Below, one piece after another: positions 10,257-49,713 of a stretch of 64,000 nt of DNA. The position numbers and the translations under genes are program-made. The stretch comes from Kiritimatiellia bacterium (GTDB lineage: Bacteria; Verrucomicrobiota; Kiritimatiellia; RFP12; JBMNHG01). The stretch is taken from positions 62,001-126,000 of the forward strand of contig JBMNHG010000008.1 in assembly GCA_050950285.1 (NCBI GenBank), given 5' to 3'. Every line of letters starts with the position of its first letter. The stretch's first letter is position 1. The notes beneath the pieces are model-generated. The model was not told the origin of the DNA and ran no database searches. It worked only from the letters and a program-made list of their open reading frames with translations.

Positions 10257-11432
10257 TCAGGTTTTCTCATCCAGCAGCGCATGCAACGCGCGCCAGCCGA
10301 CCGCCCGAACGCCGGGGCACAGCGGCATGGGCGCGGCACGATCCGCCGTGCCGGCATGCACGACTACCGCGCGCGTCACGGCGCTGTCCCCCGCCGCCGT
10401 TGCCAGACGCGTCAAGGAGCGTCCGTCGTCGGGCATCGGCGTGCGGGTGGCCTTGGCTTCGATCAGCAGCAGGCGGCGGTTGCCCTCGTCCACCACGAAA
10501 TCGACCTCCAGCCCTTGGCGGTCGCGGAAAATGTACAGCCCCCGCGCCTGTCCCCGGTTTAGACGGTGTTTGACGATCTCCGAGGCGACCAGTCCCTCGA
10601 ACAGCGGGCCGCGGAAGGGCGAGACGGCCAGATCCTCGTCATTTCGGATTCCCAGCAATGCGGCCGCCAGCCCCGAGTCCACGAAATAGACCTTGGGGGT
10701 TTTGACGATCCGCTTGCCGAAATTTTCGTAATAGGGCGGAGTGAGAATGATCTGTCCGGTGACCTCCAGGATACCCAGCCATTGGGTGAGGGTGGGCACG
10801 CTCACCCCCAGCGGCGCGGCCAGGGCCGTCTTGTTGAGCATCTGGCCGCAACGGCTGGCCAGCAGCCCCATAAAACGGCGGAAGGTCGCGAGGTCGCGGA
10901 TCAAGGCGACGGCGCGTACATCGCGTTCAAGATAGGTCTGTACGTACGAGCGGAACCAGATGTCCGCCACGTCGGGCGCGGCCTGCACTTCGGGGAAGCC
11001 GCCGAGCCGCAACGTCATGTCCGGCGTCTCCTCTGCAGAGAACGGCAGCAGCGAGAAGACCGCCGCGCGCCCCGCCATAGACTCGGTGACACCCTGCATC
11101 AGCGGAGCCTCCTGCGAGCCGGCGAGCAGCCACAGCCCTTTGCGGTCCGGCTGCCGGTCGATGCGGGTGCGCACGTAGGCGAACAACTCGGGCGTGTTCT
11201 GCATCTCGTCGAGGATGACAGGAAGCGTAAGACTGTCCAGAAACGAGCGCGGATCGGCCCGCACCCGCGCCACGACATCCGGATCTTCCAGCAGGACATG
11301 CTGGCAAGAGGGGAACAGATGGCGCAGCAGCGTGGTTTTGCCGGAGCGCCGAGGCCCCGTCACCAGCACGGCGGGAAAGTGCGCGACCGCCCGCAACACC
11401 TCCGCCTCCAGTGTTCTCTTCCGGTATTTCAT
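10257..11432 (-). CDS. AAA+ ATPase with C-terminal DUF4143 / PD-(D/E)XK-like domain
   Basis: GPRRSGKTT, ILDEMQ, ESMAGR, KTPKVYFVDSG, EVDFV..IEAK. Confidence 0.88.
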   Translation of the reverse strand: MKYRKRTLEAEVLRAVAHFPAVLVTGPRRSGKTTLLRHLFPSCQHVLLEDPDVVARVRADPRSFLDSLTLPVILDEMQNTPELFAYVRTRIDRQPDRKGLWLLAGSQEAPLMQGVTESMAGRAAVFSLLPFSAEETPDMTLRLGGFPEVQAAPDVADIWFRSYVQTYLERDVRAVALIRDLATFRRFMGLLASRCGQMLNKTALAAPLGVSVPTLTQWLGILEVTGQIILTPPYYENFGKRIVKTPKVYFVDSGLAAALLGIRNDEDLAVSPFRGPLFEGLVASEIVKHRLNRGQARGLYIFRDRQGLEVDFVVDEGNRRLLLIEAKATRTPMPDDGRSLTRLATAAGDSAVTRAVVVHAGTADRAAPMPLCPGVRAVGWRALHALLDEKT

Positions 11433-11438
11433 GTGACA

Positions 11439-11467
11439 TTTATAAAGTATCGGTTTAGAATTGTCAA
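11439..11467 (-). promoter_or_regulatory. Sigma70-type promoter of the AAA ATPase (probably leaderless)
   Basis: TTGACA-17bp-TATAAA on the minus strand, 6 nt before the ATG at 11432. Confidence 0.65.
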
Positions 11468-11605
11468 CATAATCCGGGGCCGTCTTCGTAATCGGTTCGT
11501 GACAGGGGCGTGCGAATCGGCTTCGCTTGCACGAATAGCGCTTGAGCGGCGTGTGTGGACGCGCTATGGTTTGTGGCGATTTAACTACAAACGACGGACG
11601 CAAAA

Positions 11606-11971
11606 ATGCCCACGCAACGACTCGACGACCTGTTCGCAGAAATCAGGGCCAATCTCCCCGCCCGGCGCGGCTGTCTTTGCGAGCAATACTTCACCCGGAA
11701 GGCTTCCGACGGCACCGCCTGGCGGATGGGGCCCTACTATGTGCTGACGCGGTCCGTCAACGGCAAGACCCGGTCGAAGCGCATCCCCGCGAAGGACGTG
11801 CCCCGCGTGCGGGCGGAGCTCGGGCACGGGAAGCGGCTTGAAACGATCTTCGAGAAGATATGGGAGCTGGCGGAGGAGAGCGCGGCGCGGCAGGCCTGCG
11901 ATTCGAAAAAACGGCGCGCCGCTATCACATCAACCCCCAAACGGCGCGCCGCTCCCGCAAAAGTCCCCTAA
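11606..11971 (+). CDS. DUF6788-like small protein (usually an IS accessory ORF); probable IS remnant
   Basis: RRGCLCEQY...GPYYVLTRSVNGKTRSKRIP pattern; no transposase follows. Confidence 0.55.
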   Translation: MPTQRLDDLFAEIRANLPARRGCLCEQYFTRKASDGTAWRMGPYYVLTRSVNGKTRSKRIPAKDVPRVRAELGHGKRLETIFEKIWELAEESAARQACDSKKRRAAITSTPKRRAAPAKVP

Positions 11972-12033
11972 CGAGACGACCGGATCCGGATAATCGGATC
12001 GGCTGGCGGGGGCTCATCAATGTACTGGGGAAA

Positions 12034-12107
12034 TGGTTGCCGCACAAGGATTCGAACCTTGACAGACAGTTCCAGAGACTGTAGTGCTACCGTTACACCA
12101 TGCGGCA
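12034..12107 (-). tRNA. tRNA-Gln(CTG)
   Basis: Reverse complement TGCCGCATGGTGTAACGGTAGCACTACAGTCTCTGGAACTGT...GGTTCGAATCC...GCGGCAACCA; encoded CCA. Confidence 0.97.
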
Positions 12108-12795: not shown

Positions 12796-14901
12796 TCACT
12801 CACGATCCGGATGTCTTTTCGGTTGAATCAAGACGGAAAGAATGGCGACGTCTGCGGGGGTGACACCCGAAATGCGGAGCGCCTGTGCGAGATTCTCCGG
12901 ACGGATACGGTCCAGTTTTTCGCGGGTTTCGTACCGAAGCGCTTGTACGGAGTGGTAGTCGAAGTCGTGCGGGATGGTCAACCGTTCATCCCGTTTGGCC
13001 CGTTCGGCGCTCCGTTTTTCCTGTTCGATGTACCCGTGATACTTCACCTGGAGGGTGACTTGGCGGATCACTTCCGAAGGAAGAGGGGATGGCGGGGGGA
13101 TTGGGAGAGAGGCATGGGAGACCTCCGGACGCCGAAGGAGTTCCTCCAGGGTCCGGCCCTGGAAGCGGGTGGTGCGGAGGCGATCGGTTTCGGTGTTAAC
13201 AAGCTGTTGATAACTTTCCGTTTCGGCGAGGAAAGCGGGTGGTGCCAAGCCGATCTCCTTCGCGAGGCGGAGCAGGCGGAACCGGGCGTTGTCCTGTCGC
13301 AAAAGGAGCCGACGCTCCGCGCGGGAGGTGAACATCCGGTAGGGTTCGTCCGTTCCTTTGGTCACCAGATCGTCGATCAGGACGCCGATGTAGGCGTTTT
13401 GCCGGCTCAACAGGATGGCCTGTTCATTTCTTGTGAACAACGCGGCGTTGATTCCCGCCAGGAGACCCTGGGCGGCGGCTTCCTCGTACCCGGTGGTCCC
13501 GTTGATTTGTCCCGCGCAGAAGAGGCCTGGGAGGCCATGGAATTCGAGGGACGAACGGAGCTGGCGGGGATCGAGGGCGTCGTATTCGATGGCGTAGGCG
13601 AAGGCGAGGATCTCCGCGCGTTCCAGGCCCGGGACGGAACGAACCAGTGCGTGCTGGGTGTCCCGGGGGAGGGAGTTCGAGAGCCCGTTGGGGTAGACGA
13701 CCCTTCCATTGCGCGATTCGGGCTCCAGGATCACGTGGTGGGAGTCCCGGTCTTCGAAGCGGACGACCTTGTCCTCGATGGAAGGGCAATAGCGGACGCC
13801 GGTTCCGGAGATGGAGCCCCCGTAGAGGGCGCTCCGGGGGAGGTTGTCCCGGACGATGCGATGGGTTTCGCGGGTGGTATGGGTCTCGAAGCAGTCCTCC
13901 TGGTCCGCGCCCGGGCACCATTCCAGCGGGGGGTCGATGTGCTTCGGGAGGATTCGGGGGGGCAGGTGTTCCCCGGTTGTTCCACGTGGAACAATCCGGA
14001 GGGACGCGAAGGGGTTGTTCCACGTGGAACATTCGTCTATCTGTTTGCAGTGGAGTCGGATAAAGGCTGTCCCTCCGGTCTTTGACAGCGCTTCTTCGTC
14101 TTGGTCCAGAGGAAGGGGGCCGAGCGGGGAGGCTGCCGGGATGTTCCACGTGGAACATTCGCGTATGCACTGTTCCCGGTATTGTCTCCCCTTCCAGGAA
14201 AAAAGCGGCGGGGGGTTGTCTCCGGGCTGTCGCGCGAGGACGCTCCAGTCGATGGTGGCGGCGTCCAGCCGGGCCGGGGTCCCGGTTTTGAGTCTTCGAA
14301 GCTCCATCCCCAGTTCTTGGAGGTTTGCCGAAAGGGCTTCTGCGGCGGCCCGCCCATCCCCGTCGCTCCCCAGGGATTCCCTGCCGATGAAGATCCGTCC
14401 CCCGAGCGCGGTTCCGGTGGCGAGCACGACGGCGGAGGCATGGAGTTCCCCATGGCGGATGGTGGCGACGCCGTGGAGGCGGTCGCCTGTGTGCAGGATG
14501 GCCGTTGCCATATCCTCTAGAAGATCAAGCCCCGGAGTCCGTTCCAGAACCTGGCGCATCCGAAGGGAATAGCGTCGTTTGTCGCACTGTGCGCGAGTGG
14601 CCTGCACGGAGGGGCCGCGGCTGAGGTTGAGGGTCCGGAATTGGATTCCGGCGAGGTCGGTGTCGACGCCCATTTCCCCTCCGAGCGCGTCGATTTCGGA
14701 GACGAGATGGGATTTGGCCAGCCCCCCGATGGCGGGGTTGCAGGGCATGCGGGCGATCCCGGCCCTGTTCGCCGCGAGGAGGAGGACCCGTCTCCCCATC
14801 CGCGCGGCGGCCAATGCGGCTTCGCAGCCGGCGTGCCCGGCACCGACCACGATGACGTCCCAATCGGAGGCGGGGCTTCGCATGGCGGATATCCTGTTCA
14901 C
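12796..14901 (-). CDS. mnmG: tRNA uridine-34 carboxymethylaminomethyl modification enzyme MnmG/GidA with an internal insertion
   Basis: VVGAGHAGCEAA, MPCNPAIGG, KTGTPARL, RYCPSIEDK, AGQINGTTGYEEAAAQG, EPYRMFTSRAE; GTG start with AAGGAG upstream (alternative ATG 14883). Confidence 0.97.
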   Translation of the reverse strand: MNRISAMRSPASDWDVIVVGAGHAGCEAALAAARMGRRVLLLAANRAGIARMPCNPAIGGLAKSHLVSEIDALGGEMGVDTDLAGIQFRTLNLSRGPSVQATRAQCDKRRYSLRMRQVLERTPGLDLLEDMATAILHTGDRLHGVATIRHGELHASAVVLATGTALGGRIFIGRESLGSDGDGRAAAEALSANLQELGMELRRLKTGTPARLDAATIDWSVLARQPGDNPPPLFSWKGRQYREQCIRECSTWNIPAASPLGPLPLDQDEEALSKTGGTAFIRLHCKQIDECSTWNNPFASLRIVPRGTTGEHLPPRILPKHIDPPLEWCPGADQEDCFETHTTRETHRIVRDNLPRSALYGGSISGTGVRYCPSIEDKVVRFEDRDSHHVILEPESRNGRVVYPNGLSNSLPRDTQHALVRSVPGLERAEILAFAYAIEYDALDPRQLRSSLEFHGLPGLFCAGQINGTTGYEEAAAQGLLAGINAALFTRNEQAILLSRQNAYIGVLIDDLVTKGTDEPYRMFTSRAERRLLLRQDNARFRLLRLAKEIGLAPPAFLAETESYQQLVNTETDRLRTTRFQGRTLEELLRRPEVSHASLPIPPPSPLPSEVIRQVTLQVKYHGYIEQEKRSAERAKRDERLTIPHDFDYHSVQALRYETREKLDRIRPENLAQALRISGVTPADVAILSVLIQPKRHPDRE
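13978..13993. promoter_or_regulatory. parS: parS site 1 (ParB-binding palindrome)
   Basis: TGTTCCACGTGGAACA perfect 16-bp palindrome (18 bp with flanks). Confidence 0.88.
14016..14031. promoter_or_regulatory. parS: parS site 2
   Basis: TGTTCCACGTGGAACA. Confidence 0.88.
14142..14157. promoter_or_regulatory. parS: parS site 3
   Basis: TGTTCCACGTGGAACA (18 bp with flanks). Confidence 0.88.
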
Positions 14902-47568: not shown

Positions 47569-49713
47569 CTACATCCCGTCGAGGAAGCGGTCCACCACCA
47601 GCTGGCGGAACTGCGGGGAGAGCGTCGCGAAGTAGGCGGTGAAGCCGGTCACCCGCACCACGAGGTCGGGGTGGGACGCCGGGTTTTCGTTCGCCTCCAT
47701 CAGCGTCTGCCTGTCGAGCACGTTGATGTTCACGAGCGTCCCGCCCAGGTCGAAGTGCGTCCGGATCAACTCCTCGACGCGTTCGATGCCTCCCTCCGAA
47801 GCGGGGATCCGGGGGTCGAATTCGATTTGGAGCGGGCAGGTGTTCCCGTAGCCGCATTGGATGCGGGCGACGCCGGCGGCCAGCGCGGTCGGCGCGCCGT
47901 CCTTGCGGAACCCGGGGTTCGGGTTTGCGCCGTGGGTGACGGGCGTCCCGGCCTTGCGGCCGTCGGGCGTGGCGCCGACGGTGCTTCCGAAACGGATGGT
48001 GCTCGACCAGGAGAACCAGCCCGGCACGAGGGTGACGTGCGGCGGCATCGTGCGGGCCTTCACGCGCTCCGTGTAGAGGCGGGAGACGGCCAGCGCCCAC
48101 TTGTCGCCGCGACCCGACCCCCGGCAGTAGCGGTCCGAAGCCAGCAGCATGCGGCGGACCTTCTCGTCCGGGAAGTCCTCCCGGCACGCCTCGCGGAGTT
48201 CCTTCCAGGTGATTTTCCCCTCGTCCACCACGCGTTGCTCGATGGCGGCGAAGGAGTCGGCGATCGTGCCGAGCCCCACGCCGTCCACGCACAGCGTGTG
48301 GAAGTCGGCGCACTGCGAGATGTCGAGGCCGCGTTCGAGGGTGTGGCGGCAGAAGAGGTTCATCACCAGTTCCGGCAGCACCTCGTGCATGTGTTCGAGG
48401 TGGAAGAGCAGCCCCTGCGCGGTGGCCTCGATCGCGATGTCGAGATGCTTCCGGAGGCCGTCGAAGAGCTTGTCGAGCGTGGGCGAGGGGTCGGTGTCGA
48501 CCACTTCCTCGAAGGCGTGCTGGAAGCAGAGGGCGACGTTGATCTTCGGGATGTCGTTCATCGGGTATTCGCGGCCGGGGACGGACATCCAGTGGCAGCC
48601 GGTGGAGATGCGGCGGTTCGCGACGTGCGCATCGATGCCGGGGAGGTCGTTGCGCGCGTAGTTCATGAGGCCCTTGTGGCCGCAGAAGCGCGGCCAGCCG
48701 CGCCGCTCGGTGAAGAGGCATTCGACGGCGAAGCGCAGGAAGGCGGGGTCGATCGCGTCGTGCACGCGGACCGTCAGGTTCACGGCGATGTTCAGCTTGC
48801 GGGCGGCCCGGAGGATGAGCCACGACATCGCGTTCGTCTGGTCGCGGCCGTCGTCGTCGCAGCCGGAGAGCTGGTAGTAGCGGGTGTCGATCAGCAGCAG
48901 GTTCGCGACGAGGAAGGTGGCCTCCTCCTCGGTGAGGATTCCGGCGGCGGTGTCGCGGTCGTAGAAGGGCTGGAGCACGAGGTCGAGGCGGCATCCGGCG
49001 CCGTCGCGGTCGTAGATCCGCGAGCAGAGGCCGAAGTGGGCGAGCCACTGGCAGACCTCGTGGAAGGTGCGCGGAACGCCCTCGACGCAGGCGAGGTTGG
49101 CGGCGCGCATCCGTTCGAGGGTGGCGCGGACCTCCGGTCGGGACTCCGTCGCGAGGCACGCGTCGATGCTGCCGGCGTGGCGCCGGATCCACTTCTGGAT
49201 CGCGAGGACCGTGCGCTCTTCGGCCTCGAAGAAATCGGCCTTGGCGATGCCGTGGACGCGTTTCCAATGGCGGACTTTGTCGAGGATGCCCCCCCATCCC
49301 ATGGAGAGGGCGTACTCGAGGTCGCACGAGAGATGGGCCTCGCCGCCGATGCCGTGGGCGATGTCGTACTTCTGGAAGACGGGGGCGAGCGACTGGTAGG
49401 AGAATCGCTCCGACGGCCAGGGGGAGCGGTAGTTCGTGAGGAAGGTCACGAGGCGCCCGCACAGCATCTCCATGGGGTCGACATAGGCCGGTGTCGCATC
49501 GAGCAGGGCCTCGAAGTTCCGCACCCAGCCGAGGGGCCCGTGGAAGTGGCCGCGGTCGTCCTGCGGAACGACGTGGAAGTTCCAGTCGTCCGGGAACGGG
49601 AGGGAACCGTAGTCGTCGCCGTCCATGTAGCCGTTCCGCCTGCGCTTTTCGAGGGTATGGCGGATCTTGGTTTCCTTGAGCGCGCGATAGCGGTCTTCGA
49701 GGGTGATGGCCAT
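47569..49713 (-). CDS. Glycyl radical enzyme (PFL superfamily), substrate unknown
   Basis: C-terminal HPDLVVRVTGFTAYF, GATPDGRKAG, Cys loop STGCHW. Confidence 0.9.
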   Translation of the reverse strand: MAITLEDRYRALKETKIRHTLEKRRRNGYMDGDDYGSLPFPDDWNFHVVPQDDRGHFHGPLGWVRNFEALLDATPAYVDPMEMLCGRLVTFLTNYRSPWPSERFSYQSLAPVFQKYDIAHGIGGEAHLSCDLEYALSMGWGGILDKVRHWKRVHGIAKADFFEAEERTVLAIQKWIRRHAGSIDACLATESRPEVRATLERMRAANLACVEGVPRTFHEVCQWLAHFGLCSRIYDRDGAGCRLDLVLQPFYDRDTAAGILTEEEATFLVANLLLIDTRYYQLSGCDDDGRDQTNAMSWLILRAARKLNIAVNLTVRVHDAIDPAFLRFAVECLFTERRGWPRFCGHKGLMNYARNDLPGIDAHVANRRISTGCHWMSVPGREYPMNDIPKINVALCFQHAFEEVVDTDPSPTLDKLFDGLRKHLDIAIEATAQGLLFHLEHMHEVLPELVMNLFCRHTLERGLDISQCADFHTLCVDGVGLGTIADSFAAIEQRVVDEGKITWKELREACREDFPDEKVRRMLLASDRYCRGSGRGDKWALAVSRLYTERVKARTMPPHVTLVPGWFSWSSTIRFGSTVGATPDGRKAGTPVTHGANPNPGFRKDGAPTALAAGVARIQCGYGNTCPLQIEFDPRIPASEGGIERVEELIRTHFDLGGTLVNINVLDRQTLMEANENPASHPDLVVRVTGFTAYFATLSPQFRQLVVDRFLDGM

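Follow-up and report, generated by a model that had tools for sequence, protein, structure and literature searches.

The gene mnmG (gidA) encodes a tRNA-modification enzyme, and in the Kiritimatiellia bacterium studied here it carries a long in-frame insertion with three identical palindromes, which raises the question of why such a DNA signal should lie within the coding sequence of a conserved protein. The initial annotation of this locus read the palindromes as the centromere of the chromosome, i.e., as parS sites bound by ParB, and proposed that the insertion is kept for this function of its DNA. This proposal was followed in the window (the whole stretch of 64,000 nucleotides that was analysed), in the host genome and in related genomes. 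From these comparisons it is very probable that the three palindromes in mnmG are the parS centromere of the chromosome, bound by ParB near the origin, and that MnmG carries their translation as a loop predicted to be disordered and inert.

The enlarged loop of MnmG and its palindromes

The mnmG reading frame occupies positions 12796–14883 on the reverse strand and encodes 695 residues; it is present in a single copy in the genome, and scores 720 bits against the TIGR00136 profile, for which the cut-off is 525. The full-length FAD-binding fold, motif 1 and the equivalents of both catalytic cysteines, C48 and C366, are intact (the roles of these cysteines are taken from the available text of PMC12397908), and the partner gene mnmE is also present in the host genome. 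According to its MnmG, the host is a member of Kiritimatiellia and shares a clade with Pontiella. The insertion (13903–14190, reverse strand) covers residues 232–327, in insertion domain 2, and adds approximately 88 residues with respect to E. coli. As first described, it is a stretch of 96 codons between the motifs FSWK (228) and QEDC (328), and its frame is open throughout. The claim that the matching loop of E. coli has about eight residues was borne out by an alignment to an E. coli-type PDB chain, in which residues 234 and 328 of the query correspond to residues 253 and 259 of the chain. The insertion point is equivalent to E. coli residues ~233–239 and lies outside motif 1 and the MnmE contact patches, as these are named in the available text of PMC12397908.

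A disordered loop had been anticipated, and the AlphaFold2 model agrees with this expectation: pLDDT exceeds 90 in the core of the protein and is below 50 in most of the insert (residues 244–259 and 265–319), the low values being due in part to the few sequences that align there. Searches of the insert against Pfam and Rfam gave zero matches in either database. At the C-terminal end of the insertion there is a W-x-P-G motif (13909–13920, reverse strand) that is conserved as a peptide while its synonymous codons vary freely; it is kept at the protein level in 32 of 88 long-loop genes. An intein or a self-splicing intron was considered and discarded, given the lack of Pfam or Rfam matches and the unconserved length and sequence of the insert. 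On the 3' side of mnmG there are a tRNA gene (12037–12107, reverse strand), an ORF with a DUF6788 domain (11606–11971) and an AAA_14/DUF4143 ATPase (10257–11531), and the region 10257–12107 resembles a small integrated or mobile segment.

The three exact palindromes announced at 13978, 14016 and 14142 are all present, each with the sequence TGTTCCACGTGGAACA, within a span of 180 bp. Site 1 (14142–14157) is translated as C-S-T-W-N-I from residue 243, site 2 (14016–14031) as C-S-T-W-N-N from residue 285, and site 3 (13978–13993) is read in another frame, as V-P-R-G-T from residue 298; as perfect palindromes, they are assigned to neither strand. It was correctly noted that the window holds no further site, the sole extra match with up to three mismatches being one with three, at 48392; 0.06 matches are expected by chance in the window, and four were reached in none of 100 shuffles. 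When the host genome was scanned (12 contigs, 4,045,209 bp, 99% complete), the three sites in mnmG were the only matches to the 16-mer with two or fewer mismatches. Each of them is two mismatches away from TGTTTCACGTGAAACA, the parS consensus used in PMC10197239 (available text), in line with the match to the consensus claimed originally. Misassembly is excluded, since the insert is covered from end to end, with zero base differences, by contigs from two sequencing runs of other studies (X7, 13103–14900; X9, 13109–14756), and no flag marks either run as a possible source.

Location of the sites near the origin and across the phylum

The initial account places parS clusters near the origin. In the host, dnaA and dnaN are 28 kb away on the same contig, and in its relatives the link to the origin is given by dnaA or by the skew. 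Ten closed or near-closed genomes were compared: in six, 7–69 kb separate the site from dnaA, and in a seventh the distance across the contig join is probably ~60 kb, the length there being known only as a rounded figure. In the remaining three closed genomes the site is 1.0–1.4 Mb from dnaA, and there the minus-to-plus switch of the skew brackets the site in mnmG (1.80–1.86 Mb around 1.826, 2.82–2.90 around 2.866, and 1.21–1.28 around 1.24; 20 sampled windows of 20 kb in each genome). It has been reported that origins are not always at dnaA (PMC10197239, available text). The skew of the host itself is weak and does not fix its oriC, which was not pinned in the host genome by exact DnaA boxes or by a dif-like motif. 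In the closed genomes G090 and G318, the origin defined by the skew is 0.96 and 1.36 Mb away from dnaA, which in G090 lies near the opposite switch, the one that resembles a terminus. With only three copies in the genome, clustered 28 kb from dnaA, the palindromes are a chromosomal parS cluster on every feature that sequence can check.

In the order of the host, mnmG was found in 37 of the 41 genomes searched, and each of the 30 loci that were retrieved has one or more loop sites. A wider survey used as pattern the KTGT codons with an exact site 80–300 bases downstream, and the reversed pattern as control. This exact pattern is present in 152 of 301 genomes of Verrucomicrobiota, with no hits for the control; by kinship, it was found in 30/33 genomes of the order, 50/67 of the rest of the class and 72/201 beyond the class, and in 0/301 genomes of the phylum Bacteroidota. 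Re-examination of 30 non-matching genomes recovered mnmG in 26; in all 14 that belong to the class of the host the loop has a near-match, a variant or a more distant site, and the rest have a near-match loop site (two), a site elsewhere in mnmG (two), or a short loop without a site (eight). The figure of 152/301 is a lower bound, because genomes negative for the exact pattern can carry such near-match or variant loop sites. Among the matches listed (150 of 202), the 60 exact sites, from 29 genomes, are all in mnmG (56) or up to ~620 bp upstream of it (4). In the cultured Pontiella sulfatireligans F21, whose genome measures 7.4 Mb, the only exact cores are two within the mnmG loop, and single loop sites in the FHVEQ frame are present in loci from Opitutaceae, Chthoniobacterales and Verrucomicrobiales. 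The largest loops hold six sites in a span of 305–306 residues (G233, G370) or reach a span of 387 residues (G380), and one locus (L069) has five sites within the loop and two upstream. The MnmG tree places three NCBI records labelled as Lentisphaeria (L036, L041 and L061) inside Kiritimatiellia; therefore, their labels are no basis for claiming the feature in Lentisphaeria.

Nine loci of the Akkermansia type lack any site up to a distance of 3 kb from mnmG. Genomes of this type retain a span of 96 residues in which a degraded F-x-x-E-Q is left, and in four other cases a second position of mnmG holds a perfect site (nt 1585 in L076 and L094; +994 from the KTGT codons in L134 and L136). In G099, the second-position site of mnmG is at the GC-skew switch, with dnaA 1.24 Mb off. 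Another arrangement was observed in 13 loci from Bacteroidota, Marinimicrobia, Kryptonium and Rhodothermus (L073, L078, L079, L084, L085, L088, L100, L102, L103, L109, L111, L113 and L114), where parS is directly before and/or after mnmG and not inside the loop; the loop has its normal length (a span of 77–78 residues), and in two cases the ends of mnmG are overlapped. In Caulobacter, parS presumably adjoins gidA/mnmG as well.

The persistence of the sites in this gene could mean that they are parS and that their position in mnmG is itself selected, with bound ParB tuning mnmG transcription and linking wobble-uridine modification to the cell cycle; this would be an addition to the centromere function and not an alternative to it. 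The location is kept across two class-level groups, four Akkermansia-type genomes have their site at a second place within the same gene, and the ParB of P. aeruginosa represses genes beside parS3/4 (PMC5521831, available text). However, site number and spacing vary freely, and at its native level the ParB of B. subtilis does not silence adjacent genes (PMC7333895, available text). Selection on the position is also unneeded, because the origin linkage of mnmG alone explains the place of the sites, and in the 13 loci mentioned above the gene is flanked, not entered, by parS. We consider this additional role doubtful, and the sequences compared here give no support to the early suggestion that ParB could affect mnmG expression.

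ParB and its correspondence with the sites

As noted in the initial annotation, the window contains no parA or parB genes; parB is on another contig (C6:246298–247360) and a parA candidate on a third (C11:291805–292620). The absence of parB from the genome would, according to the initial annotation, have refuted the centromere, and the host does have a complete chromosomal-type ParB, with ParB_N, HTH_ParB and ParB_C domains and the GERR motif, that scores above the cut-off of TIGR00180 and below that of the Noc model. It also has the equivalents of Arg173 and Gly201, which form the parS-binder signature in Caulobacter ParB (PMC7383237, available text) and are found in 58/58 ParBs compared; the Caulobacter numbering was carried over by spacing from G170. 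The parA candidate encodes a ParA/Soj-type ATPase of 271 residues with an AAA_31 domain (188 bits) and a deviant Walker A motif, and no specific NCBIfam ParA model is above its cut-off. The smc gene on C8 was detected as two half-matches of 512 and 455 bits. In the host genome parB and parA are orphan genes that do not adjoin each other, and in 30 parB loci examined neither a ParA Walker motif nor a parS lies within ~1.5 kb.

In the phylum sample of 301 genomes, the site and a close ParB occur together in 150, both are missing in 101, ParB alone is found in 48 and the site alone in two. Hence parB is present in 150/152 loop-positive genomes (G023 and G315 gave no parB match), and the exact loop pattern is missing in 101/103 parB-less genomes; since the latter form one clade, this joint absence counts as approximately one event and not a hundred. 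Eight genomes sampled from this clade (G042, G046, G055, G058, G073, G100, G107 and G205; loci L135 and L138–L144) have a short loop, no site and no close ParB, and in five parB-less genomes neither a ParB exceeding the cut-off of TIGR00180 nor an exact 14-mer core was found. The clade makes up about a third of the phylum sample and, going by the GTDB classes, is probably Lentisphaeria.

Two further spellings of the palindrome were found in the same loop of mnmG: TGTGCCACGTGGCACA (TGTGCC), in genus g9 and part of g14, and GTTTCCACGTGGAAAC (GTTTCC), in the rest of g14. Spelling and type of ParB recognition helix agree in 51/51 genomes in which both were read, a chosen set that is enriched for variant genera and in which the allele switches represent three evolutionary events, not 18. 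The 33 genomes with the canonical site have Asn at the position equivalent to N178, and the eight with TGTGCC have His; the ten with GTTTCC keep Asn178 and show a one-residue insertion directly before R173 together with a change of Arg181 to Gly. Among 198 genomes of the order that are at least 85% complete, the TGTGCC spelling is present in seven, two of them outside the discovery set, and the His-type helix in nine that include all seven; in the assemblies of the two His-type genomes without the variant site there was no mnmG match. A single His clade is rejected (p-AU 3.6e-7) in a quick tree of 30 of the 58 ParBs from which the helix columns were removed, suggesting that the TGTGCC/His pairing arose twice. 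According to PMC7383237 (available text), N178 is among the residues that contact parS and is conserved between ParB and Noc, and R173 bonds guanine 1 of parS; the insertion before R173 would fit GTTTCCACGTGGAAAC, because in this spelling the guanine that R173 reads is displaced outwards by one base.

This co-variation is the strongest evidence that ParB reads the loop sites, and because ParB changes in step where relatives respell the site, the loop likely serves as the centromere. We also lean, with restrained confidence, towards a broader proposal: much of the phylum would keep its entire centromere in one expandable loop of MnmG, and Kiritimatiellia would have evolved new cognate ParB/parS pairs at least three times (Asn178 to His with TGTGCCACGTGGCACA twice, and the helix insertion with GTTTCCACGTGGAAAC), these pairs being natural, partly orthogonal, and with a specificity determinant outside the four studied positions. 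The same data bear on the idea that the palindrome is bound by some other DNA-binding protein, a regulator or a nucleoid protein, and that its likeness to parS is incidental. This idea fits the fact that parA and parB adjoin neither the sites nor each other, but it leaves unexplained the allele-for-allele co-variation with the ParB helix, the loss of the site together with parB, the origin position of the sites, and the lack of an alternative parS candidate in the genome; it is very improbable.

Selection on the sites and the meaning of a probable intragenic centromere

The codons and frames of the sites were analysed in 134 distinct mnmG genes, 79 of which have loop sites. These sites are distributed among the three reading frames (84/47/27), and 18 of the 79 genes mix frames. 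Codon usage was counted in motifs chosen by protein sequence, against codon backgrounds of 0.17–0.54. In FHVE (n=77), GAA is used in 77/77 (background 0.54), GTG in 74/77 (0.30), TTC in 75/77 and CAC in 71/77; STWN (n=37) uses TCC in 37/37 (0.21), AAC in 37/37 and ACG in 35/37; and for PRGT (n=17), CGT (0.17) and ACA are found in 17/17 and CCA in 16/17. The alignment of relatives that was proposed initially revealed palindromes kept in any frame and spacers that drift: with respect to a relative of the same genus, the three sites are identical, whereas identity is 27% in the spacers versus 68% in the core. The span from KTGT to YCPS ranges from 78 to 306 residues in the 134 genes (up to 387 in a later sample) and grows with site number (Spearman 0.74, kin not being independent); a loop has from one to six or more sites, spaced by 28–377 bp. 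Most long inserts have many stops in the other frames and none in that of mnmG, which shows only that such inserts are tolerated, because the genes were found by their open frame.

It had been expected that the palindromes alone would be conserved; this is the case for the 16-mers, but the W-x-P-G at the end of the loop is also kept, as a peptide. A folded domain with synonymous changes that break the palindrome would have spoken against the proposal, and what is found is near-frozen synonymous positions in a loop predicted to be disordered. Within the genes compared, frames and codons together show that selection acts on the DNA of the sites rather than on the encoded peptide. Rickettsia palindromic elements are selfish repeats inside coding regions, and the insert could likewise have come from a selfish palindromic repeat, or from an RNA hairpin element, invading the gene; the mRNA segment does fold better than its shuffles (z −2.9), because the repeated palindromes pair with each other. 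Nevertheless, there is one locus per genome with no dispersed copies, the 16-mer alone is shared and not its flanks, single-site loops are common and Rfam gives no match, and we find such an origin scarcely credible. A dispersed repeat of the REP/RPE type is rejected because there is one locus per genome and only the 16-mer is common. It is equally hard to believe that the insertion is a functional peptide module whose conserved amino acids impose the palindromes, as the W-x-P-G with free synonymous change in 32/88 long loops might suggest, given that a single DNA word, its synonymous positions frozen, is behind three unrelated peptides (FHVE, STWN and PRGT), and that the loop has a highly variable span, no Pfam match and low pLDDT.

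The proposal that the insertion is kept for the ParB-binding function of its DNA is thus supported, as far as genome comparison reaches, by the frame-independent conservation of the sites, their uniqueness and origin linkage, the presence of parB, the predicted disorder and the co-variation with ParB. Following the established ParABS mechanism, ParB dimers would load at the sites in mnmG and spread in a CTP-dependent manner, and ParB would engage ParA and recruit SMC; transcription and translation would pass through the sites, and MnmG would tolerate the loop. A single site, in place and read as FHVEQ, probably arose early in Verrucomicrobiota, and in Kiritimatiellia the loop would then have grown by duplication of the site and gain of in-frame spacer, limited only by the open frame. 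Before that, the ancestral loop would often have had hydrophobic-Glu-Gln at this place. A hydrophobic residue followed by Glu-Gln is found at the same place in 7 of 31 short, site-less loops, and L067, from Verrucomicrobiia, has FHVEQ in a loop one residue longer than normal. Since Val-Glu-Gln codons can spell one half-site, and given the FHVEQ of L067, a site could arise in place and be amplified later.

This putative centromere resembles the ParB-parS system of Caulobacter crescentus in the class of 16-bp palindrome, the origin-proximal cluster, the equivalents of R173 and G201, and the ParA candidate and SMC of the host (PMC7383237 and PMC7333895, available texts). It differs in that the sites of the host are all intragenic and its parA and parB are orphans far from them. 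In addition, the alleles of the host lineage co-vary with position 178 and with an insertion before R173, whereas in the available text of PMC7383237 only positions 173, 179, 184 and 201 were varied. Intragenic parS sites are already known, since nine of the ten sites parS1–10 of P. aeruginosa are predicted in coding sequences (PMC4368675, available text), and there, too, it is the cluster near oriC that drives segregation (PMC4368675 and PMC5521831, available texts). Those sites, as described in these texts, are separate and lie in various ORFs; here the whole set is in one in-frame insertion of mnmG, of variable length, in any frame and in much of a phylum. As in the flanking parS loci of Bacteroidota and others, the centromere would be tied to an origin-linked mnmG; unlike in them, where the loop has normal length and parS lies beside the gene or just reaches its ends, the sites of the host are inside a long loop. 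The switch between ParB/parS and Noc/NBS is also comparable, because a change in the recognition helix accompanies the change of palindrome (PMC7383237, available text); Noc arose by duplication and took a new role, whereas in the present case the sole chromosomal ParB seems to have changed in place along with its centromere, on two occasions through an identical Asn-to-His replacement.

What appears to be new from these sequences is the match of three palindrome spellings to three types of ParB recognition helix. A literature search found neither parS in mnmG nor N178H described in any paper, and no chromosome-segregation study for Verrucomicrobiota; Livny et al. 2007 and the supplement of PMC10197239 (Akkermansia parS), which fall outside this search, may list such sites, and gidA/mnmG is absent from the main text of PMC3444138 and of a 2026 preprint on Kiritimatiellia.

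These results locate the probable centromere for a phylum, including the cultured Pontiella sulfatireligans F21, and make the loop site of mnmG a one-gene marker of the origin, which performed better than dnaA in the three closed genomes where both disagree. They also represent a clean case of a DNA signal that dictates and inflates part of a universal enzyme, and for this reason FHVEH, CSTWN and VPRGT are not to be read as protein motifs. Finally, the three pairings of site and ParB make it directly testable how a protein-DNA pair that is both single and needed can acquire another specificity when no duplication is involved, and they could supply new orthogonal pairs for DNA labelling.
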